In this document: one piece after another, positions 6,836-62,883 of the stretch
Position numbering within the stretch: the stretch's first letter is position 1
Layout of the letters: every line of letters begins with the position of its first letter
From: Thermoanaerobaculia bacterium
GTDB taxonomy: Bacteria > Acidobacteriota > Thermoanaerobaculia > Multivoradales > UBA5704
Length of the DNA: 64,000 nt
NCBI GenBank assembly: GCA_035949675.1
Contig: DASZHY010000092.1
Location: forward strand, 3,851-67,850
Direction of reading: 5' to 3'
Program-made: the position numbers and the translations under genes
The notes under the pieces: generated by a model
Told to the model about the DNA's origin: nothing
Databases searched by the model: none
The model's input: only the letters and a program-made list of their open reading frames with translations

Positions 6836-6849
6836 AGGCCGCTCCGCGG

Positions 6850-9329: not shown

Positions 9330-9401
9330 GCTGGTGCATTGCACGCTCCCGCCGGGAGCTGCCGCGGCCCACCGCTGCTGCCCTGGTACAATCCAGCCTC
9401 C

Positions 9402-9944
9402 ATGAACTCCCTGGCCTCGACGACAGTGCTGCTGGTACGCCGCAATGGGCAGGTGTGCATGGCGAGCGACGGCCAGGTCACGCTGAACAACAGCACGGTC
9501 GTGAAGAGCGGTGCCCGCAAGGTGCGGCGAGCCGGCAAGGGCCAGGTCCTGGTGGGCTTCGCCGGCGGCGGCGCCGACGCGCTGGCGCTCTTTACCCGCC
9601 TCGAGGAAAAGCTCGAGGAGTTCGGCGGCAACCTCGAGCGCGCGGTGGTCGAGCTCGCCAAGGAATGGCGGACCGACCGCGCCCTGCGCCAGCTGCAGGC
9701 GATGATCCTGGTCACCGACCGCGACCGCGCCTACCTGGTCTCGGGCGCCGGCGAGCTGCTCTCGCCCGACGAGGACGACGCGGCGCTCGCCATCGGCTCG
9801 GGCGCCAACTACGCTCTCGCCGCGGCGCGCGCCCTGCTGCGGCACACCGAGCTGCCCGCCGCCGGCATCGTGCGGGAGGCGATGAAGATCGCCGCCGAGA
9901 TCTGCATCTTCACCAACGACAGGCTCACCCTCGAGGAACTCTGA
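9402..9944 (+). CDS. hslV: ATP-dependent protease subunit HslV (ClpQ)
   Basis: MNSLASTTVLLVRRNGQVCMASDGQVTL...GSGANYALAAARALL. A Thr-Thr pair sits after a 6-residue N-terminal extension, which may be a propeptide. Confidence 0.9.
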   Translation: MNSLASTTVLLVRRNGQVCMASDGQVTLNNSTVVKSGARKVRRAGKGQVLVGFAGGGADALALFTRLEEKLEEFGGNLERAVVELAKEWRTDRALRQLQAMILVTDRDRAYLVSGAGELLSPDEDDAALAIGSGANYALAAARALLRHTELPAAGIVREAMKIAAEICIFTNDRLTLEEL

Positions 9945-9995
9945 GCGGTGGCCATCCAGCTCTCGGGTGAGACCCAGCCGGGCATCGTCCTGGAA

Positions 9996-11333
9996 AACAT
10001 GACGCCGCGGCAGATCGTCAGCGAGCTCGACAAGTTCGTGGTGGGGCAGCGGCCGGCCAAGCGCGCGGTGGCGATCGCGCTGCGCAACCGCTGGCGGCGC
10101 CAGCAGCTGCCGCCGGAGATCGCCGACGAGATCGCGCCCAAGAACATCCTGATGATCGGCTCCACCGGCGTCGGCAAGACCGAGATCGCCCGCCGCCTGG
10201 CGCGGCTCGCCAAGGCGCCGTTCCTCAAGGTCGAGGCGAGCAAGTTCACCGAGGTCGGTTACGTCGGCCGCGACGTCGAGTCGATGATCCGCGACCTGGT
10301 CGAGATCGCGGTCAGCATGGTCAAGGACGAGAAGCGCGGCGCGGTGCGCGAGGCGGCGGCGACGCGCGCCGAGGACCGGCTGTTGGAGCTGCTGGTGCCG
10401 CGGCGCCCGATCAGCCCTTACCTGAAGAACGACTCCGAGGAGGACGAGGACGAGCACGCGGCGACCCGCGAGAAGTTCCGCGACAAGCTGCGCACCGGCG
10501 CGCTGGACCAGAAGCGCGTGGAGGTCGAGGTGGACGAGTCCTCCTACCCCAGCCTCGAGATGTTCACGCCGCAGGGGGTCGAAGAGGTCGGCATCAACAT
10601 CAAGGACATGCTGCCCGGGCTCTTCGGCCGCAAGAAGCGGCAGGCGGTGTCGGTGGTCGAAGCGCGCGAGATCCTGCAGCAGCAGGAAGCCGAGAAGCTG
10701 ATCGACCGCACCCAGGTCGCCCGCGAGGCGCGCCAGCGGGTCGAGCAGGGCGGCATGATCTTCCTCGACGAGATCGACAAGATCGCCGGGCGTGAGGGCG
10801 GCCGCGGCCCCGACATCTCGCGCGAGGGCGTGCAGCGCGACCTGCTGCCGATCGTCGAGGGCACCAACGTCTCGACCAAGTACGGCATGGTCAAGACCGA
10901 CCACATCCTGTTCATCGCCGCCGGCGCCTTCCACGTCAGCAAGCCATCCGACCTGATCCCCGAGCTGCAGGGGCGCTTCCCGATCCGGGTCGAGCTCGAC
11001 GCCCTGACGGAGCACGACTTCGTGCGCATCCTGACCGAGCCCGAGACCGCGCTCACCAAGCAATATTCGGCCCTGCTCTCGACCGAAGGCGTCACCGTCG
11101 AGTTCACCGAGGACTCGGTCGCCGAGATCGCGCGCCTGGCGGTCGAGGTCAACTCCACCACCGAGAACATCGGTGCCCGGCGCCTTTCCACCCTGCTCGA
11201 GCGCCTGCTCGACGAGGTTTCCTTCGCCGCCCCCGAGATGGCCGGTGTCCACGTGCGCGTGGATGCCGAGTACGTGCGGCGGGCGCTCTCCGACATCGTC
11301 AAGAACCAGGATCTCTCCCGCTATGTCCTATGA
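9996..11333 (+). CDS. hslU: ATP-dependent protease ATPase subunit HslU (ClpY)
   Basis: [34 protein letters not shown]...[16 protein letters not shown] (Walker A)...IFLDEIDKI. The alternative GTG start at 9948 would add 16 aa. Confidence 0.9.
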
Positions 11334-12600
11334 CCCGGTGCGGCAGGTGAAGGCGATGCTGGCCCTGGCAGCGAAGGCAGCGGCAATGGCGGCACTTGCG
11401 GCGGGGCTCACCATGGCCGGCTGCGGCAAGGAAGGCCCGCCGACGCCGCCCCTGCGCGCGGTGCCGGCGCCGACCAAGGACCTCGCCGCCCGCCAGCGGG
11501 GGAACCGCGTGCTGCTGAGCTTCAGCTATCCGCAGACCACTCCCGGCGGCAGCGCGTTGAACGGCGTCAGCAAGGTGGAGGTCTACGAGGCGGTGATCCC
11601 GCCGCCGGCCCCGCCCAAGGCCCCGAGCAAGGCCCCGAGCAAGGGCAGCGCCGCGACGCCCGGGGCGGGCACCAGTCGCGCGGCCGCAGCCGGCACCGCC
11701 ACCCCATCTGGCGCCGCTGTCACCCCGGCGGGCGCGACTGCCGCGGCACAAGGGGGACCCGGTGCAGTCGCTCAGGGAGCCTCGCCTGCTCCGGAGGCGC
11801 TCGACCCGCGGGTGTTCGAGGGCCTCGCCAAGCTGCGGCTGACGCTGATCAGCAAGGACCTGGGCGCGGCGACCCTCGGCAAGCTCCTGATCGTCGACCT
11901 GCCGCTGCCCGAGCCGTTGCCGGCGACGCCGGAGGGGGCGCCGGCCCGTGACTACGCGGTGCGCACCTTCGGCCCGAAGGGCGACCGCTCCGCCTTCTCG
12001 AACCAGGCGCTGCTCAAGCCGAAGACGCCGCCCCAGCCGCCCGAAGGGGTGACCGTGGCCCCGCAGGCCGATGGCATCGTGGTCGAGTGGAAGGCGGTCC
12101 CGGAGAGCGGCGGCCATGCCGTCTACCGGCGCGCCGCCACCGAACGCTTCAGCAGCAAGCCGCTCGCCGTGATCAGCCCGCCCGCGACCCGGTACCTCGA
12201 CCAGACTGCCCGCTTCGGGCAGAGCTACATCTACTCGGTCACCGCCGTGGATGCCAAGCAACCGCTGGTCGAGAGCGCGATCAAGGCCGAGCAGGAAATT
12301 CACTACGTGGACCGTTACCCGCCGCCGGTGCCGGAAGAGCTGGTCGCCGTGGCGGAGGCCGGCCGCGTGCGGCTGGTGTGGCGCCAGAGCGAGGCGCCCG
12401 ACCTCGCCGGCTACATCGTCTACCGCAAGGGCGCGGCCACCGGCGAGTTCGTGCGCCTCACCGCGAAGCCGATCTCGACCACGAGCTACGTCGATACCAC
12501 GGTCGCCTCGGGCCAGGCGTACGACTACCGGGTGACGGCGATCGACCAGACGGGCAACGAGAGCGCTCCCTCGGCCGAGGTGCACGTGGCGGTCCCATGA
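11323..12600 (+). CDS. Lipoprotein with two fibronectin type III-like domains (hypothetical)
   Basis: Signal peptide with lipobox ...[10 protein letters not shown] Pro/Ala-rich linker is followed by FN3-like repeats ([20 protein letters not shown]...YIYSVTAVD and [21 protein letters not shown]...[15 protein letters not shown]). The ATG overlaps the hslU stop by 11 nt. Confidence 0.6.
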
Positions 12601-13436
12601 CCGCTTTCTTCAAGGTTTCGGGCAGCGGCAACGATTTCGTGGCATTGGCCGAGCCGGCGGCCGACCCCGGGCCCGAGCAGGTCCGCGCCTGGTGCCGGCG
12701 CGGCGTCTCGCTTGGCGCCGACGGGGTCTTCGTGCTGCGCCGGCCCGGTGTGGTCTCCGGACTTCCCTCGGCCGCGGACGTGCCCGAGGTTACGATGGCC
12801 TACTGGAACGCCGGCGGCGACGCCGCGGATCTCTGCCTCAACGGCACCCGCTGTGCGGCGCAGCTCGCCTGCCACCTCGGCTGGACGCAGGGCGAGGTGC
12901 GCGTGCGGACCGGCGCCGGAGCGTTCCTCGCGCGCCGCCTCGATCCGGCGCGCGTCGCGGTCGAGCTCGACGTCGACGCCGACCTCGCGGCACCGCGGCA
13001 GCTCACCGTCGATCTCGACGGCGCGTCGTACGCGGGCTGGCGCGTCATGGTGGGCGTTCCCCACTTCGTGCTCTTGTGGCCGGGGGATCTCGCCGCGGCG
13101 CCGGTGGTCGAGGTGGGGCGCGCCGTGCGTCACCACGCCGCCTTCCAGCCCGCCGGCACCAACGTCAACTTCGTCAGCTTCGAAGGCGGCAGCCGGCTAC
13201 GCATCCGGACTTACGAACGCGGGGTCGAGGACGAGACCCTCTCCTGCGGCACCGGAGCGGTGGCCGCCGCCGCGCTCGGGCTGGCGCTCGGCCGTCTCAC
13301 CGCGCCGGTGACCGCCGCCACCCACGGCGGCTTCGACCTCGTCGTCGACCGCGACCCCGCCACGCAACGCTTCACCCTCGCCGGCGACGCCCGCATCGTC
13401 GCCGCCGGCGAGCTGCTGGCCGGCGCCACGGCCTGA
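12597..13436 (+). CDS. dapF: Diaminopimelate epimerase
   Basis: [17 protein letters not shown]...NAGGDAADLCLNGTRCAA...SCGTGAVAAAA contains the two DapF active-site Cys motifs. There is an ATGA start/stop overlap with the upstream gene. Confidence 0.85.
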   Translation: MTAFFKVSGSGNDFVALAEPAADPGPEQVRAWCRRGVSLGADGVFVLRRPGVVSGLPSAADVPEVTMAYWNAGGDAADLCLNGTRCAAQLACHLGWTQGEVRVRTGAGAFLARRLDPARVAVELDVDADLAAPRQLTVDLDGASYAGWRVMVGVPHFVLLWPGDLAAAPVVEVGRAVRHHAAFQPAGTNVNFVSFEGGSRLRIRTYERGVEDETLSCGTGAVAAAALGLALGRLTAPVTAATHGGFDLVVDRDPATQRFTLAGDARIVAAGELLAGATA

Positions 13437-13608: not shown

Positions 13609-15009
13609 ATGCACATAAACCGTGTTTCATCCCCGAGGCGGCTCGCCGCTTTCGGCATCGTTTTCGCGCTGGCGCTCGCTCTCGCGCCGGCATCCCATGC
13701 AGCGAACCACGACGTCAGTGCCACCGCATCGTTGACCTTCGAGCCGGCCAACCTCACGATCAAGGTCGGCGATTCGGTGACCTGGACCAACTCGAGCGGC
13801 GTGAATCACAACGTGGCCGCGAACGACGGCAGCTTCCGCTGCGCCAGCGGTTGCGACGGCGACGGCCACGGCGGCAACGGCAACCCGGCGGGCAGCTGGA
13901 CGTTCACGCGGACCTTCAACCAGCCCGGCACCATCAACTACCTGTGCGAGGTCCACGGCGGCCCTCCCATCTCCATGGTGGGCTCGATCGTGGTGCAGGG
14001 CAGCGCCGCTTCTCCGGGCAGCCTGGACTTCAGCACTGCCGCCGACAGCGTCGCCGAGAACGCCGGCACCGCTCATCTCACCGTCAACCGCAGAGGCGGC
14101 AGCTCGGGGGCGGTGAGCGTCCACTTCGCCACCAGCGACGGCACCGGCGTGGCCGGCAAGAACTACGTCGCGACCTCCGGCACGCTCAACTGGGCCGCCG
14201 GCGACACGGCGGCCAAGACAATCAACGTCGCGGTGCTCGACGACGGCGTTGCGGACGGCGGCCACACCGTCAACCTGACGCTCAGCGCGCCCCAGGGCGG
14301 GGCAAGCCTGGGAACGCCGTCCGCCATCGTGCTCACCATCACCAACACCGACGGCGGCACGGGCGGTGCGCCCGCCGCGCCCTCGAACCTGGCGGCGGCC
14401 AGCGCCGGCACCACCGCCATCAATCTCACCTGGAAGAGCAACTCCAGCAACGAGACCGGCTTCCGCGTGCAGAGCAAGGTGCTCGACGGCAGCCCGTTCC
14501 AGGACGTCCTGCCGCTCTCCCCGGCGGGCAGCACGGGCACCGCTGTAACCGGCTTGCAGCCGGCGACCGGCTACGGGTTCCGGGTGCGCGCGGAGAACGC
14601 GGCCGGCAACTCGGCCTACACCACCGAGGCCGACGCCGCCACCGACACGACGCCCGGCACCTGCGTCGCCGACGCCAACACCCTCTGCCTCGGCGGCCGT
14701 TTCAAGGTCAGCGTTGCCTGGGCGACCAGCAACATGAGCGGCGTGGGGACCACGGTGCCGCTGGCCGCCAACCCGGACTCGGGGCTGTTCTACTTCTTCG
14801 CGTCGAGCAACATCGAGATGCTGATCAAGGTGATCAACGGCTGCGGGCTCAGCAACACCTACTGGGTCTTCTTCGCCGCCACCACCAACGTGCAATTCAC
14901 GGTCACCGTGGTCGACGTCACGACCGGCAAGACCAAGGTGTACTTCAATCCGCTCAACCAGGCCGCGGTGCCGGTGCAGGACACCAACGCCTTCGCCACC
15001 TGCCCCTGA
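13609..15009 (+). CDS. Secreted multidomain protein: type-1 copper cupredoxin + 2 Calx-beta + FN3 + conserved C-terminal domain ending CP
   Basis: Signal peptide present. The cupredoxin region holds ligands His (NHNV), Cys/His (YLCEVHG) and Met (SMVG). Calx-beta motifs are VHFATSDGTGVAGKNY...NVAVLDDGVADG. The FN3 domain is INLTWKSN...YGFRVRAENAAGNS. The C-terminal domain of about 130 aa is shared with 28212..29957 and 61954..62883. Confidence 0.7.
   Translation: MHINRVSSPRRLAAFGIVFALALALAPASHAANHDVSATASLTFEPANLTIKVGDSVTWTNSSGVNHNVAANDGSFRCASGCDGDGHGGNGNPAGSWTFTRTFNQPGTINYLCEVHGGPPISMVGSIVVQGSAASPGSLDFSTAADSVAENAGTAHLTVNRRGGSSGAVSVHFATSDGTGVAGKNYVATSGTLNWAAGDTAAKTINVAVLDDGVADGGHTVNLTLSAPQGGASLGTPSAIVLTITNTDGGTGGAPAAPSNLAAASAGTTAINLTWKSNSSNETGFRVQSKVLDGSPFQDVLPLSPAGSTGTAVTGLQPATGYGFRVRAENAAGNSAYTTEADAATDTTPGTCVADANTLCLGGRFKVSVAWATSNMSGVGTTVPLAANPDSGLFYFFASSNIEMLIKVINGCGLSNTYWVFFAATTNVQFTVTVVDVTTGKTKVYFNPLNQAAVPVQDTNAFATCP
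14233..15009 (+). repeat. Copy 1 of a ~777-bp dispersed repeat (near-identical from about 14330 onward), matching 29181..29957
   Basis: Side-by-side reading of the two gene 3' halves shows only scattered substitutions across the FN3 and C-terminal-domain coding DNA. Identity stops right after the stop codons. Confidence 0.8.
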
Positions 15010-28211: not shown

Positions 28212-29957
28212 ATGTGTAATTACCGTGCTTCGTCCCCGGTGCGGCTTGCCGCTCTCGCCATCGTTCTCGCCGTCAGCGTGGTGCCGGTCTGCCAGGCGAC
28301 GACCCACAACGTGAGCGCCACCTCGTCTCTCTCCTTCGTACCGGCCAACATCACGATCAACGTCGGCGATTCGGTGACCTGGACCAATACCACCGGCGGC
28401 TACTACATGCACAACGTGGTCGCGGACGACGGCAGCTTCCGCTGCGCCAACGGCTGCGACGGCGACGGCCACGGCGGCAACGGCAACCCGGCGACCACCT
28501 GGACCTTCACGCTGACCTTCAACCAGGCCGGCACCGTCAATTACCACTGCGAGGTCCACGGCGGCCCCCCCTACTACATGATGGGCTCGATCACGGTGCA
28601 GGGCGCCTCGACCCCGGGGACGCTCGGCTTCACCACCGCCGCCTACAGTCAGGCCGAGACCGGCGGCCATGCCACCATCACCTTGCAGCGCACCGGCGGC
28701 AGCAGCGGCACCGTCGGCGTCGACTACGCGACCAGCAGCGGCACGGCGGTCGCCGGCACCAACTACACGCCGGCTTCCGGGACCCTCACCTGGGCCGCCG
28801 GGGACACTTCCCAGAAGAGCTTCAACGTGCCGGTGATCGACGACGGCGTCCAGGACGGGACCCACACCGTCAACCTGACGCTCAGCAATGCCACCGGCGG
28901 CGCCTCCGTGGGGCAGGCGTCGGCGGTCCTGTCGATCACCGACAACGACAAGCCCGCCGCCGCCGGCAGCCTGGCGTTCAGCGCCGCCGCCTACAGCGTT
29001 GCCGAGAACGCCGGCACCACCTCGATCACCGTCAATCGCAGCGGCGGCAGCTCGGGGGCGGTGAGCGCCCACTACGCCACCAGCAACGGCACCGGCATGG
29101 CCGGCAAGCATTACACCGCGACCTCCGGCACTCTCAACTGGGGCGCCGGCGACTCGGCGGCCAAGACGTTCAGCGTCGCCGTGCTCGACGACGGCGTCGC
29201 GGACGGCAACCATACGGCCAACCTGACGCTCAGTGCGCCCCAGGGCGGGGCCAGCCTGGGAACGCCGTCCACCGCCGTGCTCACCATCACCAACACCGAC
29301 GGCGGCACGGGCGGTGCGCCCGCCGCGCCCTCGAACCTGGCGGCGGCCAGCGCCGGCACCACCGCCATCAATCTCACCTGGAAGAGCAACTCCAACAACG
29401 AGACCGGCTTCCGCGTGCAGAGCAAGGCGCTCGACGGCAGCCCGTTCCAGGACGTCCTGCCGCTCTCCCCGGCGGGCAGCACGAGCAGCACCGTCACCGG
29501 CCTGTTGCCGGCGACCGGCTACGGGTTCCGGGTGCGCGCGGAGAACGCCGCTGGCGCCTCGGCCTACACCACCGAGGCCGACGCCGCCACCGACACGACG
29601 CCCGGCACCTGCGTCGCCGACGCCAACACCCTTTGCCTCGGCGGCCGTTTCAAGGTCAGCGTTGCCTGGGCGACCAGCAACATGAGCGGCGCGGGGACCA
29701 CGGTGCCGCTGGCCGCCAATCCGGACTCGGGGCTGTTCTACTTCTTCGCGTCGAGCAACATCGAGATGCTGATCAAGGTGATCAACGGCTGCGGGCTCAG
29801 CAACACCTACTGGGTCTTCTTCGCCGCCACCACCAACGTGCAGTTCACGGTCACCGTGGTCGACGTCACGACCGGCAAGACCAAGGTGTACTTCAATCCG
29901 CTCAACCAGGCCGCGGCGCCGGTGCAGGACACCAACGCCTTCGCCACCTGCCCCTGA
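28212..29957 (+). CDS. Secreted multidomain protein: cupredoxin + 3 Calx-beta + FN3 + conserved C-terminal domain (paralog of 13609..15009)
   Basis: Signal peptide present. The cupredoxin site is MHNV...YHCEVHGGPPYYMMG. Calx-beta repeats read VDYATSSGTAVAGTNY and AHYATSNGTGMAGKHY. The last 770 bp are near-identical to 14233..15009. Confidence 0.7.
   Translation: MCNYRASSPVRLAALAIVLAVSVVPVCQATTHNVSATSSLSFVPANITINVGDSVTWTNTTGGYYMHNVVADDGSFRCANGCDGDGHGGNGNPATTWTFTLTFNQAGTVNYHCEVHGGPPYYMMGSITVQGASTPGTLGFTTAAYSQAETGGHATITLQRTGGSSGTVGVDYATSSGTAVAGTNYTPASGTLTWAAGDTSQKSFNVPVIDDGVQDGTHTVNLTLSNATGGASVGQASAVLSITDNDKPAAAGSLAFSAAAYSVAENAGTTSITVNRSGGSSGAVSAHYATSNGTGMAGKHYTATSGTLNWGAGDSAAKTFSVAVLDDGVADGNHTANLTLSAPQGGASLGTPSTAVLTITNTDGGTGGAPAAPSNLAAASAGTTAINLTWKSNSNNETGFRVQSKALDGSPFQDVLPLSPAGSTSSTVTGLLPATGYGFRVRAENAAGASAYTTEADAATDTTPGTCVADANTLCLGGRFKVSVAWATSNMSGAGTTVPLAANPDSGLFYFFASSNIEMLIKVINGCGLSNTYWVFFAATTNVQFTVTVVDVTTGKTKVYFNPLNQAAAPVQDTNAFATCP
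29181..29957 (+). repeat. Copy 2 of the ~777-bp dispersed repeat (see 14233..15009)
   Basis: See copy 1. Confidence 0.8.
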
Positions 29958-45591: not shown

Positions 45592-46905
45592 ATGAGCAAG
45601 CGCCGCAAGTCGCGCCGTGAGGCTGCCGCCGGTGTCGCCGTCCGCACCAGGCGGCCGCGCGGCCGGGCCTGGGGAGCGCGTGCGCGAGGCTTCGGGGCGT
45701 TTCTGCGCGAGTACACGGCGGGCCTCAACCGGCAGGAGATCAAGCGGCTGTTCAACCGCGACGCGGCCAGCGCCTACTCGGTGCTGACGCGCGAGCACGC
45801 CCAGCTGCCCGAGCCGAAGGGCCGCGGCAAGCGCTTTCTGTTCCGCACCAGGCTCGCCTTTCTCGGCCTGTCGTACAAGCTGACGCCGGCGCGGCGCGCG
45901 GTGTTCGCACTGTCGCTGATCTGCCTGGTGATCGCGCTGATGACCGGCGACTCCACGTACACCACGGTGGAGCACGGCCACACCGTCAAGGTCAGCGTCG
46001 ACTTCTCGCCGTTCTGGTTCCTGCTCGCGAGCGGCGGGCTGACCTTCCTGCTGGCGCTCGAGCTGGTCGATCGGGTGCGGGTGCGCGACGAGCTGCAGGT
46101 GGCCCGCGAGCTGCAAGCCGAGCTGCTGCCGCACGGCGCGATCGAGCTGCCGGGGTATCGCGTCGCCCACTCCTACCGCACCGCCAACGAGGTGGGAGGC
46201 GATTACTACGAGGTGATGCCGCTGCCCGACGGGCGGGTGGCGTTGATGGTCGGCGACGCCACCGGGCACGGCATGGCGTCGGGCCTGGTGATGGCGATCG
46301 CCAATGCCACGCTGAAGACCGCCCTCGACCTCGATCCCGACCCGCGGCGGGTGATCGCCGTGCTGAACCGCACCCTTTGCCGCACCGGCACGCGGCGCAC
46401 TTTCATGACCGTCTTCTACGCCCTGCTCGACCCGGCCGCCGGCGGCCTGGTGTTGGTCTGCGCCGGGCACCCGTTCCCGCTGTTGCGCCGCGGCGGCGAC
46501 GGCACGGTCGAGGAGCTCGGGCGCGGCGGCCTGCCGCTGGGCGTGCGCGACGACCTCGCGCCTGAGCCGCAGGCCACGACGCTCGGTCCCGGCGATCTGC
46601 TGGTGCTCTACACCGACGGGCTGGCCGAGGCGGTGAACGCCCAGGCGGAGGCCTTCGGCTACGAGCGCATCGCCGCGCTGACCCGGCCCGGCGGCACGCC
46701 GCAGGAGGTGCACGACCGCATCCTGGCCGCCTTCGACGCCCACGTCGGCGAGGAGCCGCTGCGCGACGACCTGACCCTGCTGGTGATCTCGCGCGAGGGC
46801 GCCGCGCCCCCCGCCGCGATCCGGCCCGTCGATGCGGCCGCCAAGGTGGCGGCGATGGCGGCGGCGATCTCCCGCGGCGCCGGCGGGACCGGCGAATCGG
46901 CTTGA
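45592..46905 (+). CDS. PP2C-family (SpoIIE/RsbU-like) serine phosphatase with N-terminal TM segments
   Basis: GGDYYEVMPLPDGRVALMVGDATGHGMASG...TDGLAEAVN are PPM metal-binding motifs. Confidence 0.8.
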   Translation: MSKRRKSRREAAAGVAVRTRRPRGRAWGARARGFGAFLREYTAGLNRQEIKRLFNRDAASAYSVLTREHAQLPEPKGRGKRFLFRTRLAFLGLSYKLTPARRAVFALSLICLVIALMTGDSTYTTVEHGHTVKVSVDFSPFWFLLASGGLTFLLALELVDRVRVRDELQVARELQAELLPHGAIELPGYRVAHSYRTANEVGGDYYEVMPLPDGRVALMVGDATGHGMASGLVMAIANATLKTALDLDPDPRRVIAVLNRTLCRTGTRRTFMTVFYALLDPAAGGLVLVCAGHPFPLLRRGGDGTVEELGRGGLPLGVRDDLAPEPQATTLGPGDLLVLYTDGLAEAVNAQAEAFGYERIAALTRPGGTPQEVHDRILAAFDAHVGEEPLRDDLTLLVISREGAAPPAAIRPVDAAAKVAAMAAAISRGAGGTGESA

Positions 46906-47687
46906 CCCCCGGGCGCTGGCCGCGAGCGCTCCTGCTGCCGCTGACCGATGCCTGGCGCGGTCTCGACCGCTGTCTCGATCGCGGCGCCTGGGCGGTTTCG
47001 CGGGTCGGCGCCGGCCTGCTCGCCGGCTGGTGGGTCTATGTGCCGGTGCACGAGCTGCTGCACGCCGCCGCCTGCCGGGCGGCCGGCGGCGAGGTGCTGC
47101 GGCTGGAGATCGCGCGGCTCTATGGCGGCGCCGTGCTGGCGCGCCTGCTGCCGTTCGTCGCCGCCGGCGGCGAGTATGCCGGCCGCCTCGCTGGCTTCGA
47201 CACCCACGGCAGCGACCTCATCTATCTCGCCACCGATCTCGGCCCCTTCCTGCTGACGCTCCTGCCGGGAGTGTGGTGGCTGCGCCGCGCCGCGCGCGGC
47301 CGCCGCGCCTTCGCCTTCGGCGCCGCGCTGCCGGTGGCCCTCGCTCCCTTCCTGTCGTTGACCGGCGACGCGTACGAGATCGGGGCGATCCTGATCACCC
47401 GCCTGCCGCCCTGGGCCGGCCCGGCGGCGCGCCGGCTGCTGCGCGGCGACGACCTGTGGCGGCGGCTGCAGGCGATCGCGACGGCAGCGACGACGGCGAC
47501 GACGGCGAAACTTGCGGTGCGGCCGCCGTTGCCCATGTGGCAGCTGTGGCTTGGGGCCGCGCTCGCCGCGGCCGCCGGCCTGGCGTGGGCGCTGCTGACC
47601 TATGGCGCCGGCGCCGCGCTGGCGCGTCTGGCCGGGCAGCCGGCGCTCGACGGAGATCCCTCCGCGGTGAATGGGCGACTGCGGTAG
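46902..47687 (+). CDS. Membrane protein with HExxH motif (putative zincin-like, DUF3267-like)
   Basis: VPVHELLHAAAC lies in a predicted TM context with several hydrophobic helices. The Ala/Arg-rich composition makes the call tentative. Confidence 0.35.
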   Translation: MTPGRWPRALLLPLTDAWRGLDRCLDRGAWAVSRVGAGLLAGWWVYVPVHELLHAAACRAAGGEVLRLEIARLYGGAVLARLLPFVAAGGEYAGRLAGFDTHGSDLIYLATDLGPFLLTLLPGVWWLRRAARGRRAFAFGAALPVALAPFLSLTGDAYEIGAILITRLPPWAGPAARRLLRGDDLWRRLQAIATAATTATTAKLAVRPPLPMWQLWLGAALAAAAGLAWALLTYGAGAALARLAGQPALDGDPSAVNGRLR

Positions 47688-47803
47688 CGACCGACTCCCA
47701 TCAATCGAATCTGGGAGCCTGGCCGCCCGGCGGGCGGGAAAGGCCGGCCGAGGCCGCGACCATGGGTTGCTTCGCGGCCCCGGCCGATGTCAGGGCGTCG
47801 GGG

Positions 47804-47974
47804 TCAACAGTTGAACTTCGTGCAGACGTTGCCGCACGTGTCCGTACAACAGCTCGACGTGCCGCCGCTGCAGGCCGCAGTTCGGACGCCGGCGGCCACC
47901 TGGCTGAACTCGGCCCCGGAGAGGTGGCGCAGCGTCTCCGCGTTCAGCGAGAGCTTCCTTTGGATCTTCTTCAT
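47804..47974 (-). CDS. Orphan 56-aa Cys-rich peptide with double-glycine-type leader (candidate RiPP/bacteriocin precursor)
   Basis: Hand translation of the minus strand gives MKKIQRKLSLNAETLRHLSGAEFSQVAAGVRTAACSGGTSSCCTDTCGNVCTKFNC*. The leader fits LSxxELxxIxGG (with GA). The C-terminal 27 aa hold 6 Cys and 5 Ser/Thr. It is absent from the six-frame ORF track because it is under 60 aa. An AT-rich promoter region lies at 48000..48300. Confidence 0.45.
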   Translation of the reverse strand: MKKIQRKLSLNAETLRHLSGAEFSQVAAGVRTAACSGGTSSCCTDTCGNVCTKFNC

Positions 47975-48338
47975 CGGACTTCTCCTTTTCGACTACGGGT
48001 TATGCGGTGCCAGGCCGCGAGACGAGGGCCGTCCGCATCGCTGGGAGCTCCAGAGCAGCGAATTTTGGAAGCGAGCCTTGGCCAGGGAGCCGGGTGCCGC
48101 GGGTGAAACTAGAAGTATCATCACAGAACTTACAGTCGAACTATCATTTCTAGCAGTTCTACATCCTTTATGAAGACGTTATCAGTCAATACAGATGCTG
48201 TCAATGCTTTAATGACATCATAATTGCATATGGCGCCAATAAGCGCGGCAACGCCACCCGCTACACGGCAGGCGGCGGCTATTCAGATGGAGTTTTGAAC
48301 GCGACGAGGAAGCAGGCGCCGGGGCACACCGGCTCAGG

Positions 48339-49370
48339 TCAAGAGGTGAGCTTCTCCCAGTCCGCGTCCGGGGCGTCGAGCGCGATCGAGAGGCCGCCGT
48401 CGGAGCCGACGAAGACGGGGTCCTTCACCACCTTGACCTTGCCGCCGCCGACCGCCGCCAGCTCCTGCTCGAGGCGCGGTCCCAGGCCACGGATCAAGCC
48501 GGTGCCCCCCGAGACGATGATGTTGTTGCGCACCCTCTCCTGGTACTCGGGCTGCACGCGGGACAGGAGGTCCAGCATCGACTCGACGATCGGCGGCAGC
48601 AGCCCTTCGCAGGCCTGCCGCATCTCCTGGGTGATGTCGATCTGCGTCGGCTTGCCGTTGACCGGCACGGTGACCACGACCGGCGTGCGGGTGTTGCCGA
48701 CGAAGCTCGACTCCTCCTTCCAGGCGCGGACCATGTGGATCGAGAAGCGGGCCTCCGGGAAGCGCTCCCGGGTGAGGCGCGACAGCTGCTCGTCGACCCA
48801 GTCGCCCGCCTGGGTCAGGGTGCGCTGGTCCTCCTCGGCCGGCAGGCGGCCGTTCATGACGCAGAAGTCGGTGGTGCCGGCGCCGAGGTCGATGATCAAG
48901 CTGTGGAGCAGGGCCTCGAGCCCATAGGCCACCGCGAACGGCTCGGAAACGATCATCAGGTTGTCCACCGCGTCCTGCATCGCCTTGCGCACGTTCTGCT
49001 TGTTGACCCGCAGCGCCTCGGCGGGGACGCCGACCACCGCGCGCACCTTCATGCCGTTGCGGGTCTCGCGGGCGACGCCGACCAGCGACAGCAGATGCCA
49101 CAACAGCTCGCGCACCGCCGCCTCGTCCTTCTCCGAGCCGTCCTTGATCAGTCCTTCCTCGAGCGGCCGGTGCAGGTCGAGCATCGAGCGGTTCTCGAGC
49201 GCCTCATGGCCGATCAGCACCGGCTTCTTCAACACCTTGCGCGCCACCATGTCGAGCGGCCACCCGACGTAGCTCTCGACCACGTGGCGCTGCCCGGTGG
49301 AGGCCGAGATCGAGCTGCGCGACGTCCCCAGGTCGATGCCCACGTGGAGAACGGGTTTGCTCTCGGTCAT
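48339..49370 (-). CDS. MamK-like actin-family ATPase (MreB/ParM superfamily)
   Basis: VGIDLGTSRSSIS...SYVGWPLDMV...EPFAVAYGLEALLHSLIIDLGAGTTDFCVMNGRLPAEEDQRTLTQAGDWVDEQL closely parallels MamK (EPFMVGYGLD..IVDIGAGTTDICALKG..PEDQVTLTKAGNYVDERL). RBS AAGGAAG precedes the ATG at 49370. Confidence 0.8.
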   Translation of the reverse strand: MTESKPVLHVGIDLGTSRSSISASTGQRHVVESYVGWPLDMVARKVLKKPVLIGHEALENRSMLDLHRPLEEGLIKDGSEKDEAAVRELLWHLLSLVGVARETRNGMKVRAVVGVPAEALRVNKQNVRKAMQDAVDNLMIVSEPFAVAYGLEALLHSLIIDLGAGTTDFCVMNGRLPAEEDQRTLTQAGDWVDEQLSRLTRERFPEARFSIHMVRAWKEESSFVGNTRTPVVVTVPVNGKPTQIDITQEMRQACEGLLPPIVESMLDLLSRVQPEYQERVRNNIIVSGGTGLIRGLGPRLEQELAAVGGGKVKVVKDPVFVGSDGGLSIALDAPDADWEKLTS

Positions 49371-49417
49371 GCGGTTGGCTTCCTTTCTGATCGGTCCCAT
49401 GATGCGGCGGCGGCCGG

Positions 49418-50470
49418 CTACCCGCCGTTGCCGGCGGCGGCACCGCGGGCGGTGCTGGCGTAGACCCGCAGGCCGCCGGCGAGGGCCTCCGCGATGTACT
49501 GGCGGTACAGCGGCCGCGCCAGCAGCCGCGCCTCGTCGGTGTTGGAGGCGCAAGAGACCTCCGCCAGGATGGCCGGCATGCGGGTCGAGAGCAGCACGAT
49601 GAAAGGGGCCGACTTGACGCCCCGGTCCTCGATCTTCGGATTCACCCTGCCCAGCGACCGGAACAGCGCGCGCTGCACGACCTCGGCGAGCTCTCGCGAC
49701 TTGTCCTGACGGACGCCGGCATAGATACCGTCCAGCAGCTGGCGCATGTCGGCCATCGCGTAGCCGGAGTCGCGGTTCTCGAGCGCCGCCAGCCGGTTGA
49801 GGAACGGATCGTTGGTGGGGCCCAGGTAATAGGTCTCGACGCCGTGCGAGGCGCGGTTCTCGATCCAGTTGACGTGCACCGAGACGAAGACGTCGGCGCC
49901 CGAGCGGTTGGCGATGGCGGCGCGCTCGGCCAGCGACACCGCGCTGTCGCCGCTGCGGGTCATGACGACCTCGAAGTCGTGCTGCGCCTCGAGCAGCTGC
50001 CGCAGGCGGCGCGCGACGTCCAGGGTGATGTCCTTTTCCAGCAGCCCGAGCGGGGTCCTGGTGCCGTGGCTGTCGCCGCCGTGCCCGGCGTCGAGAGCGA
50101 TCCTGCGCACCGCGAGCGGGAGCACCGCGGGGTCGATCGTGGCCGCCCCCTGGGAAACCAGGACGGCGGCGATGGGCGGCGGATTCGCCCTCAGGTCCTG
50201 CCCCGCCCGGACCGCGGAGGTCGCCAGGGTCGCTCCCGGCGGCCGTACCGGCGCCGGCGCGGCGGCGAGCGTCGAGAGCAGCCGCGTCGAGCCGACCAGC
50301 GCCGTCGACGCCAGCAGCAGGGCGAGCGCACCCAGCAGCCGCAGGTACGGAAGCCGGCGCGGAGCGTGCGGGCGATGAATCCGGCCCTGGATGAGCTCCA
50401 CGTTTTGCTGCACCAGGTCGTGCACCAGGCGGCGCTTGAGACGATCGACGTTGGCCTTGGACTGCAGCAT
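49418..50470 (-). CDS. N-acetylmuramoyl-L-alanine amidase (Amidase_3, AmiC-type) lacking an AMIN domain
   Basis: IALDAGHGGDSHG...ADVFVSVHVNWIENRASHGVETYY are Amidase_3 zinc-site motifs. The N-terminus carries a TM/signal region. Confidence 0.8.
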   Translation of the reverse strand: MLQSKANVDRLKRRLVHDLVQQNVELIQGRIHRPHAPRRLPYLRLLGALALLLASTALVGSTRLLSTLAAAPAPVRPPGATLATSAVRAGQDLRANPPPIAAVLVSQGAATIDPAVLPLAVRRIALDAGHGGDSHGTRTPLGLLEKDITLDVARRLRQLLEAQHDFEVVMTRSGDSAVSLAERAAIANRSGADVFVSVHVNWIENRASHGVETYYLGPTNDPFLNRLAALENRDSGYAMADMRQLLDGIYAGVRQDKSRELAEVVQRALFRSLGRVNPKIEDRGVKSAPFIVLLSTRMPAILAEVSCASNTDEARLLARPLYRQYIAEALAGGLRVYASTARGAAAGNGG

Positions 50471-50594: not shown

Positions 50595-52553
50595 TCAGCT
50601 CTTGCCGGTCCTGACTCCGCCCCCTCCGGCCGCCCCGGCTCCGGCCGCCCCAACCGCTCCAGCCTGCGCGCCGATGGCGAAGCGCGCGGTCCCGGTCTGC
50701 GTTCCGGCCGGACCGCTGAGCGTGACCACCAGGCGGTAGGCGCCGGGAACGAGGTGCGGCGGCCGGAAGACCGCCCGCAGCACCGCCGGGCGCGAACCGC
50801 CCCCCGCATCGCGGCTGCCGAGACGCAGCTCGCCGCTCGCCAGGTCGCGGCCGTCGGCGCTCTGGACCACCGCTCGGGCCCTCAACTTGCCGTCCCCCAG
50901 GTTGTAGGCGACCAGCGCCACTGCCGCGTTCTTGCCGGGCGTGAGCGCCGGCAACGAGGCCGGCACGTAGGCACGGCGCCCGACCGTGAACGGGTAGGGA
51001 GCGTCGCGCTGCTCGCCGCGCGGCGGCTCGCGCACCATGGCCCACCTGCCGCCTGCCTCGGGAAAGAAGGGCTGCAACAGCACCGGCCGATCGGCGGTAA
51101 AGGAGGGCACGGTCAGCATCAGGGCGCGCTTGCCGAAGGCTCCCGTGTCGCCGTTGCGTACCAGCGTGCGCACCGAGTACTCGCCGGCCGGCAGCTCGAG
51201 ATGGCCGAAGAACTTCAGCCCGCCGCGCCGTAGCGTCGCCCCGGCTTTGCCGAGATCCAGCCGCAGGATCTGGCCGAAGGAGTCGGCGATGGCGCCGTCG
51301 CCGCCGACGGCGTAGGCGTAGACCTCGGCAGGCAGGTCGGCGCGGGAGCCGCCGGCCAGCAGCGTGGCGCCGTCGGCTTCGACCAGCACCGGCACGTAAG
51401 CCTTGTCCGCAACGCCGCGGAAGGGCGCGGCCAGCACGGCGGTGGCGACCGCCCCCGCGTCGCCGCCGCTCATCAGCTGGTCGCCGGCGGCGAGCCGTCT
51501 GGCGTCGGGCGGCAGCTGGGCATAGGGCAGGCGGCCGTAGAAACCCGGCCGGTGGTCCAGCCGCGCGGCGGGGGGCGCGCCGCTCAGCTCGACGGCGAGC
51601 GGATGGAAGGCGCCGTCGAGCGCGGCGGCCGCCGGGTGGAAGGACAGCAAATAGGTGACGCTGGTCTGCCTGACCAGCCGTGCCATGGCGCGGTCCAGCT
51701 CGCCGCGCAGGTCCGGGAGGTCACCCCGAAGATCGACGGTCGCGACGACGCAGTCCACCCGCCGCAGCTGCTCGGGCACGCCGGCGAGCGGCTCGGGCGG
51801 GGCGCCGGCCGCTGCCGAGAACAGGACCGCCAGCTTGCGCCCCGCCACCGCATCGAGCCCGCTGGCCAGCTCGGACAAGGAGCTCGCCGCGAGGCCCGCG
51901 TCGAGGCGGCCGCGGCTGGCCAGCGAGCGCTGCCGCAGTGCCTCGAGCATGGCCTCCGGCTCGACCTCCGGGGCCGCCGCCGCCCCGGGATCGGCGGCGA
52001 GCGCCAGGCCCGGCAGTGCGGCCCGTAGCTTGGGCGAGGTCAGCCGCAGCTCGTCTTGCTGGCCGTCGAGCAATTCCGGCAAGCCGAGATGCGCGACGGC
52101 CCCGAGGACCTCCCGGCGGTCGGAGGTGAACCCGAGCACCAGCCGCCAGCCCGACTCGCCGTCGAAGGTGGCCACCGCCGCCAGGTCGCCAGGTGCGAAG
52201 GACCCCGGCAGCCACTCGCGCACCGCGCGCGTCGCCGCCAGGATGGCGGTCGGCTCCGAGCCCGCCAGATCGAACAGCAGCAGGTAGCGGCGCCTGGTAC
52301 CGGGCCGCCCGAGATCGACGAAGTCGAAGCCGCTGATGGTCCGCCTGGCGCCGTCTTCGAGCAGCGCGAAATCCGCTGCCGCGAGGCCCCGCACCGGCTC
52401 GCCGTCGAGCAGGACCTGGACGGGGATCTGCACCGCCTCGGGCGGGACGGCTGCCTGCCCGCGGCGCTCGCCTGCCGCCGGCCGGAGCACCAGCGCCAGC
52501 AAGCAGCCGAAGCCGACCAGCACGAGCCCGCTTGGCGTCCACTTGTTCGGCAT
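50595..52553 (-). CDS. Secreted protein with VWA-like N-terminal domain (hypothetical)
   Basis: Signal peptide MPNKWTPSGLVLVGFGCLLALVL. A VWA-like beta-alpha pattern follows (YLLLFDLAGSE...AAVATFDGESGW). The composition is low-complexity and Ala-rich, so confidence is limited. Confidence 0.45.
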   Translation of the reverse strand: MPNKWTPSGLVLVGFGCLLALVLRPAAGERRGQAAVPPEAVQIPVQVLLDGEPVRGLAAADFALLEDGARRTISGFDFVDLGRPGTRRRYLLLFDLAGSEPTAILAATRAVREWLPGSFAPGDLAAVATFDGESGWRLVLGFTSDRREVLGAVAHLGLPELLDGQQDELRLTSPKLRAALPGLALAADPGAAAAPEVEPEAMLEALRQRSLASRGRLDAGLAASSLSELASGLDAVAGRKLAVLFSAAAGAPPEPLAGVPEQLRRVDCVVATVDLRGDLPDLRGELDRAMARLVRQTSVTYLLSFHPAAAALDGAFHPLAVELSGAPPAARLDHRPGFYGRLPYAQLPPDARRLAAGDQLMSGGDAGAVATAVLAAPFRGVADKAYVPVLVEADGATLLAGGSRADLPAEVYAYAVGGDGAIADSFGQILRLDLGKAGATLRRGGLKFFGHLELPAGEYSVRTLVRNGDTGAFGKRALMLTVPSFTADRPVLLQPFFPEAGGRWAMVREPPRGEQRDAPYPFTVGRRAYVPASLPALTPGKNAAVALVAYNLGDGKLRARAVVQSADGRDLASGELRLGSRDAGGGSRPAVLRAVFRPPHLVPGAYRLVVTLSGPAGTQTGTARFAIGAQAGAVGAAGAGAAGGGGVRTGKS

Positions 52554-52748
52554 GACGGCACTGGCGCCGCATGGGTGAACACGAGCCGGAGCCAGACCAG
52601 AGCAACTATACGCCCCGGAGCCGCCGGCTCGATCCGCACGTGCGGCGCGCGTTGGCTGTCAGCCGCACGTGCGGCGCGCGTGGCTGTCAGGCGCACCAGG
52701 GGTGCGCGTGGCCGTCAGGCGCGCGAGCGGAGCGGCGGCGGCGCGCGG

Positions 52749-54776
52749 CTACTTGGCGCGCAGGTGGATGCGGAGCTGGCGTGGCCCGGGCTGGACGCCT
52801 ATCACCTGCACGTCGCGGCTGCCCAGGTCCAGCACGATGTGCAGCTCCTGGGGCGGGTGATAGCCGGTACGGATCTGCAGCAGCTCCGGGGTCCGCACCA
52901 TCAGGCGTGGCGACGGGAAGGGACGGTCGATGCCGGTGATCCGGATCACTTCGCGCACCGGCAAGCCGCCGACCCGGGTCCTGGTGTAGGACTCGTTGGT
53001 GAAGTCGCCATTGCCCCACAGCACGACCTCGGTGCCGTCCGCCACGGGCTGCCAGGTGATCCGCTGCACGGCTGTCAGCCGCGCAGTGGCGCCAGGAGCG
53101 CCGGCGCCGCGCCCGCTGGCGCTGCCGGGCGCCGGCACCGGCTCGAGCACGGCGCGGCCGGCAGACGCCGCCGCCGGCGGTGCCGTCGCCGGCGGGGAGG
53201 CTCCGCGGCCGGCAGCAGGCGTCACCGGCGGCGCCGTCACCGCTGGTGCCGTCACCGTCGGCGTGGCAGCCGACGGCACGGTTGGGGCCGGCGCGGCCGA
53301 GGTGGGTGCGCCCCCGGTCGGCGTCGCCGCTGCCGGCGCGGCCGGGGCGGCTGAGCCCGCCGCGGTCGCCGCGGCCGCTGTCGGCGCGGCCGGGGCGGCT
53401 GAGCCCGCCGCGGTCGGCGTCGCCGCTGCCTGCGCGGTCGGCACGGCCAAGCCGGGCGCGGTCCGGGCCTTGGCGCCGGCGGCGGCCGGGGCCGCCGGGG
53501 CCGCGGACACCGTTTCCGGCTGGGCGGCTTCGCGCCTCTCGATCCATCCCAGCACGGTGTCGCGCAGCAGGTAGACTCCCAGGCCCACGAGGGCGACGGC
53601 CAGCAGCGCGCCGACCAGCGGCAGGCGCGAAGGCCGGCGCGGCGCGCGCAGGTCGAACGACGAGAAGGTGGGAGCCGCGGCCGGCGGCGGCACCTTGGCT
53701 GGCGCCGGCACCTGAGCCGGAGGCAGCGGCGCGCCGGCACCGGCCACGATCTCGTCGAGCGGCGGCAGCGCCGGCACGTCCGGCGCCAGCTCGTCGAGCG
53801 GCGGCAGCGCCGCGGCCACCTGGGCAAGCGGGTCGGCCGCGTGTCCGGCCGGCGCGCCCTCGCCGGTCGCCGACAGTCCGCCAGCTGCTGTCCCGCCGGC
53901 GCCGGCGGCTTCGTCCCCCGCGCCGAGGGACTCGAGCGGCGAGCGGGGAGTGATTGCCGGCACGCCGGGCAGCTGCTGAATCGCCGGGATCTCGAGCCGC
54001 CACGGCAGGGATGACAGATCGTCCTGCGGCGGCGCGGCTGCCGGCCGCGGCGGTGCGGCCGGCGGCAGGCCTGGCGCGCTCATGGCCGGCGGCGGCGCGG
54101 TCGCCGGGGGCGGCGGGCTGGGCGCGCTCACGGCCGGCGGCGGCGCGGTCACGGGCGGCGGCGCGGTCGCGGGCGGCGGCGTTCTCGCCAGGGCCGGCGG
54201 GTCTGGCACCGCGACGACGGGCCGCGCCTCCCTCCCGGGAGCGCGCATTTCGCCGTGGGGCTCCGCGGCGCCGGCCTCGGGTCCGGCCGCCGGCGGCGGG
54301 GTCGGGTCGAAGGGCTTGCCGCCATGCGCCACGTAGTCGTCGACGATCTTGTAGATGAGGTCCTTGCTGCCCGGGCTCAGATCGAGGAACCGGACTCCCA
54401 TGCCGGGCGGCCGCTCCGGCCCCTCGCCCCGCTCGCGCGCCCACACCACCTCGCCGCGTCCACGGATCAACTCGTAGCCGTCGCCCAGCCGGAACTCGAA
54501 CTCGAGCAGCTGTCCCGGCGCCTCCGGGGTGTCCGTGCGGATGAAGATCCCGCCCGGCGAGATGTTGGAGAAATATTCGTTGATGAAGCCGCTGAAGCGG
54601 TCGAACTTGAGCTGGATCCGGTGCGCCAGCGGCACGCGGGTCTGGTCGCGCGGCAGGTTGGAGTAGTCGGTAGCCACCTTGTCGATCCGGATGTCTCGTG
54701 CCGGGTGCGCAGGGCGGTCGGGGCGGCCGGTGGCGGAGGCCCATCGCCCCCAGACGTCCTGCTGATCCGATCCCAT
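52749..54776 (-). CDS. PilZ-domain protein with Pro/Ala-rich linker, TM segment and C-terminal AMIN-like domain
   Basis: PilZ motifs RDQTR (RxxxR) and NISPGG (D/N-x-S-x-G-G). A Pro-rich APP repeat linker is followed by TM helix LPLVGALLAVALVGLGVYLL. The C-terminal domain of about 110 aa (TAVQRITWQPVADGTEVVLWGNGDF...LHIVLDLG...LRIHL) is AMIN-like. Confidence 0.6.
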   Translation of the reverse strand: MGSDQQDVWGRWASATGRPDRPAHPARDIRIDKVATDYSNLPRDQTRVPLAHRIQLKFDRFSGFINEYFSNISPGGIFIRTDTPEAPGQLLEFEFRLGDGYELIRGRGEVVWARERGEGPERPPGMGVRFLDLSPGSKDLIYKIVDDYVAHGGKPFDPTPPPAAGPEAGAAEPHGEMRAPGREARPVVAVPDPPALARTPPPATAPPPVTAPPPAVSAPSPPPPATAPPPAMSAPGLPPAAPPRPAAAPPQDDLSSLPWRLEIPAIQQLPGVPAITPRSPLESLGAGDEAAGAGGTAAGGLSATGEGAPAGHAADPLAQVAAALPPLDELAPDVPALPPLDEIVAGAGAPLPPAQVPAPAKVPPPAAAPTFSSFDLRAPRRPSRLPLVGALLAVALVGLGVYLLRDTVLGWIERREAAQPETVSAAPAAPAAAGAKARTAPGLAVPTAQAAATPTAAGSAAPAAPTAAAATAAGSAAPAAPAAATPTGGAPTSAAPAPTVPSAATPTVTAPAVTAPPVTPAAGRGASPPATAPPAAASAGRAVLEPVPAPGSASGRGAGAPGATARLTAVQRITWQPVADGTEVVLWGNGDFTNESYTRTRVGGLPVREVIRITGIDRPFPSPRLMVRTPELLQIRTGYHPPQELHIVLDLGSRDVQVIGVQPGPRQLRIHLRAK

Positions 54777-61953: not shown

Positions 61954-62883
61954 ATGGTCTTCGCCTTCAGCAGGTACAGGCGGCGCGGCAGGCCGCTGCT
62001 TCGAGGATTGCTGCTGTCTGGGGCGCTGCTGCTCGCGCCTGCCGCTGCCGCGCAGGCCACTGTGTCGGTGATCTACAACTGTCCGAGCTCCGGTAGCTCG
62101 GGCAACCACGACTCCGTGGCCAACGGGTTCTACGTACAGAACCTCAACGCCGTGAACCTGCACTCGGTCGTGATCGACTACACGACCGACACGGACGGCA
62201 CCTACACACTCCAGCTGACCGCCAGGGACGGCTCCTACGCCGGCCCGCAGATCGGTTCGACACAGACTCAGATGGTGAACCTGAGCAGCGGCGCGGACAC
62301 GCCGGTGACCTGGTCTTTCGGCGACGCCGCCTTCACTCCCGGGCACACCCTGGCGTTCACCCACAATTTCGGCGGGCCCGGCGGAGTGCAGTTCAACCTG
62401 CAGGGGACCCTGTGCCCCGGCGACGTCGAGACCGTCGGCACCACCTCCAACTCCAACGGCTTCAGCGTCGCGGTGGCAATCACCGACAACACCCAGAGCG
62501 CGAGCGGCTGCATGCCCGGCAGCCAGACCCTGTGTATCAGCGACCAGCCCGGCGATCACCGGTTTCAGATCACCAGCTCGTTCTCGACCACCCAGGGCGG
62601 CGGTCACTCCGGCAACGGCGGCGCCATCGACCTGACGCCGGTCGGCGTCACCGAGGGCGGCCTCTTCTGGTTCTTCGACTCGGCGAATCCCGAGATGCTG
62701 ATCAAAGTGATCAACGGCTGCGCGATCAACAACCACTTCTGGGTGTTCTACGCCGCGGTCACCAACGTCTCGTTCCAGGTCACGGTGAAAGACACCAAGA
62801 CCGGCCACACCGCGACCTACCACAATCCCGATCTGACCACCGCGGCTCCGATTCAGGACACCTCGGCCCTCACCTGCCCCTGA
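61954..62883 (+). CDS. Secreted protein carrying the same conserved C-terminal domain as the cupredoxin paralogs
   Basis: Signal peptide present. The C-terminus ...GLFWFFDSANPEMLIKVINGCAINNHFWVFYAAVTNVSFQVTVKDTKTGHTATYHNPDLTTAAPIQDTSALTCP* aligns residue-by-residue with the C-termini of 13609..15009 and 28212..29957. Confidence 0.6.
   Translation: MVFAFSRYRRRGRPLLRGLLLSGALLLAPAAAAQATVSVIYNCPSSGSSGNHDSVANGFYVQNLNAVNLHSVVIDYTTDTDGTYTLQLTARDGSYAGPQIGSTQTQMVNLSSGADTPVTWSFGDAAFTPGHTLAFTHNFGGPGGVQFNLQGTLCPGDVETVGTTSNSNGFSVAVAITDNTQSASGCMPGSQTLCISDQPGDHRFQITSSFSTTQGGGHSGNGGAIDLTPVGVTEGGLFWFFDSANPEMLIKVINGCAINNHFWVFYAAVTNVSFQVTVKDTKTGHTATYHNPDLTTAAPIQDTSALTCP

Follow-up and report, generated by a model that had tools for sequence, protein, structure and literature searches.

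The locus considered here raises the question of what a short gene encodes, and how its product would be matured, when it specifies a Cys-, Ser- and Thr-rich peptide with a double-glycine-type leader and lies far from any enzyme that would modify such a peptide. The gene lies in a 64-kb window, the whole stretch of Thermoanaerobaculia DNA that was analysed (64,000 nucleotides). Judged by its leader and core, the peptide belongs to a known class I lanthipeptide precursor (LanA) family, of which it is itself a new member. The argument draws on the following features.

47804..47974, minus strand: lanA-like precursor gene, 56 aa (MKKIQRKLSLNAETLRHLSGAEFSQVAAG followed by VRTAACSGGTSSCCTDTCGNVCTKFNC), recognized by its open reading frame, GC3, phmmer relatives and public gene calls
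47888..47974, minus strand: predicted leader codons, residues 1-29, from NF038153 coverage of residues 1-29 and alignment
47804..47887, minus strand: predicted core codons, residues 30-56, plus stop; 6 Cys, 8 Ser/Thr, motif CSGGTSSCCTDTC
47982..47987, minus strand: Shine-Dalgarno AAGGAG, 7 nt before the ATG, by direct reading of the sequence
about 48090..48260, minus strand: AT-rich stretch, 38-41% GC by composition, in the 364-nt gap after a MamK-like gene
47744..47787, minus strand: GC-rich 16-bp hairpin, 17 nt past the stop, between convergent genes

The open reading frame at 47804..47974 is a real, conserved, expressed-type gene. Its full translation (MKKIQRKLSLNAETLRHLSGAEFSQVAAGVRTAACSGGTSSCCTDTCGNVCTKFNC) contains six Cys and agrees exactly with the 56-residue minus-strand peptide of the original prediction. 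The GC3 of the gene is 0.89, a codon bias like that of genuine genes here, against a GC content of 70.5% for the window, and the AAGGAG element is unchanged in loci L001 and L002. The exact peptide is present on 13 metagenome contigs from at least 11 samples, with an identical context every time, and has an NCBI entry (HEV3455790.1, 'hypothetical protein VHG32_04480 [Thermoanaerobaculia bacterium]'). The gene had been described as missed by the ORF track, but the public callers of JGI and NCBI do call it as a 'hypothetical protein'; they therefore find the gene and leave it unnamed. A random small reading frame lacking conserved homologues had also been entertained, whereas a phmmer/HMMER pass over 1.84 billion (1.84e9) representative proteins at E<=1e-3 recovers 14 homologues with identities of 36-65% and a best E of 1.1e-15.

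All 14 relatives possess a leader of the form MKKxxxKLxLxKETLRxLSxxELxxVxGG followed by a Cys/Ser/Thr-rich core, and the second- and fifth-ranked matches, both found within exporter/LanBC-type clusters, have the core motif CSGGxSSCCTxxC in common with the query. The only specific model match of the peptide is to NF038153 (NCBIfam lant_leader_L1a, class I lanthipeptide), which covers residues 1-29 at E=0.0019 and 18.3 bits, below its cut-off of 22 bits. Five clustered relatives score 30-41 bits against this model, P0002 scores 15.5 bits, and P0003, directly beside LanC, is also under the cut-off at 20.0 bits. What lowers the score of the present leader is its degenerate ELxxVxGG half (AEFSQVAAG, with AG for GG). 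More specifically, the leader motif reads L8-S-L10-N-A12-ETLRH-L18, which is the LxLxKx5L type with Ala in place of K, a swap also seen in P0003 and P0007. The combination of an LxLxKx5L motif and a GG-type site, by which class I LanA leaders of this type are recognized (PMC7268733), is found in the peptide; its leader is thus of the LxLxKx5L...GG type and not of the FNLD type known from nisin.

The residues A28-G29 are aligned with the GG of 13 of the 14 relatives. Because the GG of the relatives aligns there, the leader is predicted to be cleaved after Ala28-Gly29 (QVAAG/VRTAAC), leaving a core of 27 residues, and this alignment displaces the cut first proposed, SGA/EF. The computed mass of the unmodified core is 2688.05 Da, and that of the core after 8 to 6 dehydrations is 2543.97-2579.99 Da. 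Six Cys stand against eight Ser/Thr in VRTAACSGGTSSCCTDTCGNVCTKFNC, as in cores where Ser/Thr at least equal Cys in number, and both sets of residues are kept in P0002 and P0003.

The resemblance of leader and core to the precursors of LanB/LanC clusters is established through three relatives. P0003 (63% identity, core CSGGTSSCCTDTCVRC) is encoded immediately upstream of LanC, P0006 (54%, core CCSGGASSCCTEDC...) lies between the 3' end of a C39-ABC exporter (PCAT) gene and LanC, and the L010 peptide (52% identity) comes after HlyD-PCAT. Because its leader and core are homologous to peptides beside LanC, LanB and C39-ABC exporters, the peptide is assigned to the class I lanthipeptides; of the several classes that had been suggested for the core, lanthipeptide therefore stands, whereas TOMM, sactipeptide and SCIFF do not. 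The double-glycine-type leader expected of a RiPP precursor is likewise upheld, as it is homologous to the GG leaders of cluster-encoded peptides.

Walker et al. 2020 (PMC7268733) describe, from Bacteroidetes, class I LanAs whose LxLxKx5L leader ends in GG and whose clusters often encode a C39 protease. The peptide is like them in its L8-x-L10-x-x-x5-L18 scaffold, its Gly at -1, its Cys/Ser/Thr-rich core and its homology to LanB/LanC/C39-ABC-linked members. It differs in having Ala for K and Ala-Gly for GG, in scoring under the 22-bit cut-off (18.3 bits), in its acidobacterial host (Acidobacteriota, Thermoanaerobaculia, not Bacteroidetes) and in being without LanB, LanC or PCAT within 64 kb.

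The phylogenetic distribution of the family was surveyed in one genome per GTDB species, with a 6-sequence alignment as the query and with the window's own species not among the representatives. Thirteen loci are found in Holophagales, Thermoanaerobaculia, Polyangia and Archangium, and LanC, LanB or PCAT adjoins the peptide in 11 of these 13 named-genome loci. According to Pfam and tblastn, the typical locus is ordered as GAF-HlyD adaptor, Peptidase_C39-ABC exporter, LanA, LanC and full-length LanB. Thermoanaerobaculia account for 7 of the 13 loci, six with HlyD-PCAT-LanA-LanC-LanB and the seventh (L019) with LanC, and this raises the prior for maturation in trans. A metagenome scan, over a collection that does not include the newer JGI samples, adds 43 further loci, about 16 of them clustered.

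When compared with the HlyD-PCAT-LanA-LanC-LanB clusters of Thermoanaerobaculia and Holophagales (L011, L012, L015-L020, L037, L043, L044 and L058), the peptide is alike in bacterial class, leader family and length range, the cluster peptides having 5-9 Cys. In contrast, the cluster precursors sit inside the cluster, their leaders end in the canonical ELxGVVGG and their cores are unrelated to CSGGTSSCCTDTC, L009, L010 and L023 excepted. Two arrangements in the family are unusual in themselves. In L011 (6667..13785, Thermoanaerobaculia), two full-length LanB genes that are 62% identical flank two precursors with different cores. P0009 (132 aa) contains two leader-plus-core units in one ORF, with the repeat unit KKLRLNKETVRELKDSELKT(V/A)AG.G; it represents a tandem precursor or else a read-through in gene calling.

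The gene in the window stands apart from such an arrangement. LanB, LanC, LanM, YcaO, radical-SAM/SPASM, Peptidase_C39 and ABC_membrane are all absent among the window ORFs by Pfam and NCBIfam, and tblastn of the 64-kb window with the LanB, LanC, PCAT and HlyD proteins of the relatives as queries returns only generic ABC ATPase-domain similarity. The earlier statement that no LanM/LanB, YcaO, radical-SAM or PCAT gene is visible in the window is thus borne out, and the enzyme-free span around the precursor gene measures 47.8 kb on one side and 16 kb on the other. Neither a cognate LanB and LanC pair nor a C39-ABC transporter is encoded alongside the gene within the window, whereas the relatives have such a transporter adjacent. 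A search of the six-frame translation with the leader HMM also finds no second paralogue in the window. Novel maturation machinery, which had been offered as one way out, is not needed, since known LanBC/PCAT accompanies many relatives.

The window is a housekeeping region. Its genes encode topoisomerase I, a GIDA-family (TrmFO-like) protein, a XerC-like recombinase and an HslU-like AAA ATPase; DapF, TyrS, ApbE, glutamate dehydrogenase, citrate synthase and an FTR1 iron permease; and two FtsX-type ABC systems, a PlsB-like acyltransferase, a SpoIIE-type phosphatase, Amidase_3 and a MamK-like actin. The peptide shares with PCAT-exported double-glycine bacteriocins an LSxxELxxIxGG-like leader end (LSGAEFSQVAAG), and its relatives adjoin PCATs, but the window is without a PCAT and the only nearby ABC systems are of MacB/FtsX type without C39. 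A MacB-type ABC/HlyD-like pump at about 38.2-42.9 kb was considered as an exporter and rejected, as it lacks C39 and unrelated genes intervene.

The precursor gene lies 364 nt downstream of the gene for the MamK-family actin-like protein, on the same strand. The latter (48339..49400, minus strand) matches NF040964 at 377 bits, the cut-off being 400, and is directly downstream of the Amidase_3 cell-wall amidase gene (49418..50470, minus strand). The Thermoanaerobaculia host of this MamK-like gene is presumably not magnetotactic. A 652-aa neighbour (50595..52553, minus strand) matches TIGR03436 acidobact_VWFA at 87 bits, which is consistent with an acidobacterial host. A 52%-identical acidobact_VWFA fragment is located 1.4 kb from P0002 (L008, 11590..12177, minus strand), and the presence of this family near both orphans may be coincidence because the family is rich in paralogues.

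Several other genes of the window merit record. Paralogous secreted-type proteins with plastocyanin/azurin-like copper-binding, Calx-beta and fn3 domains are encoded at 13732..15009 and 28278..29957 (both plus strand). Two ORFs with strong coding bias have no Pfam or NCBIfam match, one of 685 aa (52687..54744, minus strand) that occurs in all strain contigs and one of 273 aa (62062..62883, plus strand). Near the GIDA-family (TrmFO-like) gene are a weak rve_3 integrase-core fragment (5412..6266, plus strand) and the XerC/phage-integrase family recombinase (8292..9329, plus strand), which could be a mobile-element remnant or just a housekeeping xerC.

A membrane HExxH protein had been noted as convergent with the precursor gene and proposed as its leader peptidase or immunity factor. 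The gene is present at 46902..47687 (261 aa, HELLH), convergent and separated from the precursor gene by 116 nt. It begins with a TTG that overlaps the stop codon of the gene for the SpoIIE phosphatase, and because of this overlap it is placed in a PlsB-like/SpoIIE/HExxH operon on the opposite strand. The protein matches Pfam DUF3267 at E=0.12 only, has no match in NCBIfam and none that is meaningful in the PDB (best E=0.26), and tblastn of about 60 other family loci detects it beside none except the same locus in a close strain. A role as a dedicated partner of the peptide is accordingly rejected, given the different operon, the lack of co-occurrence with the family and the marginal DUF3267 score.

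The DNA flanking the gene has compositional features of its own. The unusually AT-rich 300 bp described at 48000..48300 are real at about 48090..48260, but 48000..48100 is 68% GC. The AT-rich stretch is retained in the 92%-identical strain L001 and may have a promoter or regulatory role. A perfect TTGACA (48204..48199), a 17-nt spacer and TAACGT (48181..48176) form the only promoter-like feature and are a weak promoter candidate with a poor -10; the sigma-70 promoter scan of the minus strand returns nothing. A sigma-54 promoter at TGGCAC (48012..48007) was rejected as it has no matching -12 element. An Rfam scan of 47600..48450 at E<=1 gives no match, against a known riboswitch or sRNA in the AT-rich/5' UTR region, and shuffled sequences fold at least as well as the 5' UTR (z = +1.13). 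Downstream of the gene, the hairpin at 47744..47787 (MFE -41.7 kcal/mol, z = -1.68 on strand folding) is a probable terminator, though without a proper T-run, and the terminator scan finds none because this T-run is missing.

Strain variation is revealing of the selection that acts on the gene. Across 14 strain sequences, 8 of the 171 gene positions are polymorphic, whereas 12-15% of positions vary in the flanking intergenic DNA and the 3' end of the neighbouring gene; no other part of the region is as low in polymorphism as the gene. In the strain L001, whose DNA is 92% identical (peptide P0001), four synonymous changes all fall in the leader and three amino-acid changes all fall in the core. 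At greater distance, core residues 35-56 are identical at 20 of 21 positions in P0002 with 5 synonymous codon changes, and at 15 of 16 positions in P0003 with 8 synonymous codon changes, while leader identity is only 16/29 and 16/28, respectively. The core is under strong purifying selection, and to judge from these codon patterns the peptide product is evidently functional. The core Ser/Thr positions are conserved as strictly as the Cys, which is what paired thioether partners need and a disulfide-only peptide would not.

With LanB, LanC and PCAT absent from the window, the peptide is probably a satellite class I LanA that is matured in trans by a cluster elsewhere in the genome. The 29-residue leader would dock the peptide on a LanB dehydratase encoded elsewhere, which would turn core Ser/Thr into dehydro-residues through glutamyl-tRNA. 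A LanC cyclase would then add the six Cys to dehydro-residues, giving up to six lanthionine/methyllanthionine rings, and a C39-peptidase ABC exporter (PCAT) with an HlyD-type adaptor would cut after Ala28-Gly29 and export the 27-residue product. We infer the ring chemistry, the cleavage site and an antimicrobial or signalling activity of the peptide.

A precedent for such a separation is provided by the prochlorosins, whose precursors are encoded far from their synthetase (PMC7268733) and served in trans, which is how the orphan copy is proposed to be matured. The prochlorosins are class II, with a ProcM (LanM) enzyme, many scattered precursors and a Nif11-type leader, unlike the class I peptide here. 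Their maturation in trans is demonstrated, whereas that of the orphan peptide we infer. In the sample data, the one Logan run of the peptide (SRR12659399) is not that of P0003 or P0006.

Several findings weigh against a satellite LanA. Besides the lack of LanB, LanC and C39-ABC genes in the window and the NF038153 score under the cut-off, there are two more. The first is that P0002 (65%, L008), the nearest relative from another species, and P0013 are also orphans, in differing contexts. P0002 has a YfhO-like gene and an RlmI-type methyltransferase as neighbours, with thrS-infC-rplT near, a context unrelated to that of the window, and P0013 is located between a Trans_reg_C-TPR regulator and a thioredoxin. 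An all-against-all comparison reveals no neighbour family common to the orphan loci, and thus no sign of an alternative dedicated enzyme. The second is that, among the orphans, conservation is higher in the core than in the leader, the reverse of the usual RiPP pattern, which fits a weaker constraint on the leader.

These findings give some room to the alternative that the peptide is LanBC-independent and descends from a former lanthipeptide lineage, for example as a secreted three-disulfide bacteriocin or signal with another export route. The three distinct contexts (the window, L008 and L025-27) in which orphans of the closest subfamily lie, the lack of a common neighbour family, the even Cys count, the greater conservation of the core and the sub-threshold NF038153 scores of the peptide and P0002 are all in keeping with it. 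However, the clustered P0003 is sub-threshold too, P0003 and P0006 have this core motif and are encoded beside LanC, and the core Ser/Thr are kept as tightly as the Cys, which a disulfide-only peptide would not need. The L-x-L...L scaffold and the G at -1 are also kept, the leader changes between strains are only synonymous, and LanBC-PCAT clusters are common in Thermoanaerobaculia; this alternative is unlikely, though it is the most probable of the rival explanations.

It appears rather doubtful that the orphans (the peptide, P0002 and P0013, each with a housekeeping context of its own) represent a LanA-type lineage freed from LanBC that is unmodified, or modified by something unrecognised, and that serves, for example, in signalling. 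Such a lineage would fit the repeated pairing of leader, Ser/Thr kinase and sigma-54 activator in L014, L067 and L071. On these myxobacteria-type contigs, Ser/Thr protein kinases accompany the peptides that have this leader, and LanB/LanC are absent. L014 (a Polyangia MAG, 6327..13214) has two tandem units, each consisting of a peptide and then a 930-aa kinase with PD40 repeats; L067 (9517..13139) has two peptides and a kinase ORF homologous to the L014 kinase; and in L071 (2340..6052) P0007 follows a kinase and an FHA-sigma54 activator.

It is improbable that the gene is an evolutionary relic, a precursor left unmatured and decaying after the loss or relocation of its cluster. The orphan position, the degenerate GG half of the leader (AG) and the sub-threshold model score would suit a relic, but the reading frame, Shine-Dalgarno and GC3 show no decay, all 13 contigs encode an identical protein, the gene has fewer polymorphisms than its flanks, all four leader differences from the 92%-identical strain are synonymous, and the core is conserved across the synonymous divergence to P0002 and P0003.

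Membership in another RiPP class (sactipeptide, SCIFF/ranthipeptide, TOMM/YcaO or thiopeptide) that shares only an export-type leader is very improbable. Leaders of this type are generic for PCAT export, weak matches to TIGR04149 (rSAM-modified GG peptides) occur in some relatives, and the cores at several orphan loci are hydrophobic and un-lanthipeptide-like; one orphan metagenome peptide reaches 27.2 bits with TIGR04149 (cut-off 25), yet scores 35.8 bits with NF038153. The peptide itself, however, has no TIGR04149 or SCIFF match at E<=1, and the window, without rSAM, SPASM or YcaO, offers neither the model match with an adjacent rSAM/SPASM of the TIGR04149, SCIFF and sactipeptide systems nor the YcaO, or split LanB plus pyridine synthase, of TOMMs and thiopeptides. 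Enzyme-linked relatives with the same core motif adjoin LanC, LanB or PCAT and never rSAM or YcaO, and neither YcaO nor a split LanB with pyridine synthase is found beside any relative examined.

Finally, a chance ORF with no gene behind it, for which the length of only 56 codons and the abundance of spurious ORFs in a 70% GC genome might speak, is effectively refuted by the 14 homologues at E<=1e-3 among 1.84e9 proteins and by codon-level conservation (synonymous-only leader changes, a conserved core), in addition to the GC3 of 0.89 and a proper Shine-Dalgarno.

The peptide adds an uncharacterised lanthipeptide core (CSGGTSSCCTDTC...CTKFNC, with up to six rings predicted) from Thermoanaerobaculia, an uncultured soil acidobacterial class. 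Acidobacteriota and Myxococcota also turn out to have, widely, the LxLxKx5L/GG class I leader that was described from Bacteroidetes. Genome mining that is centred on clusters is blind to precursors located tens of kilobases from LanBC. Should the genome prove to be without LanBC, the peptide would derive from a LanA but meet a different fate. If maturation in trans, the reading preferred here, is true, class I systems would share with the prochlorosins the logic of one enzyme and scattered precursors.
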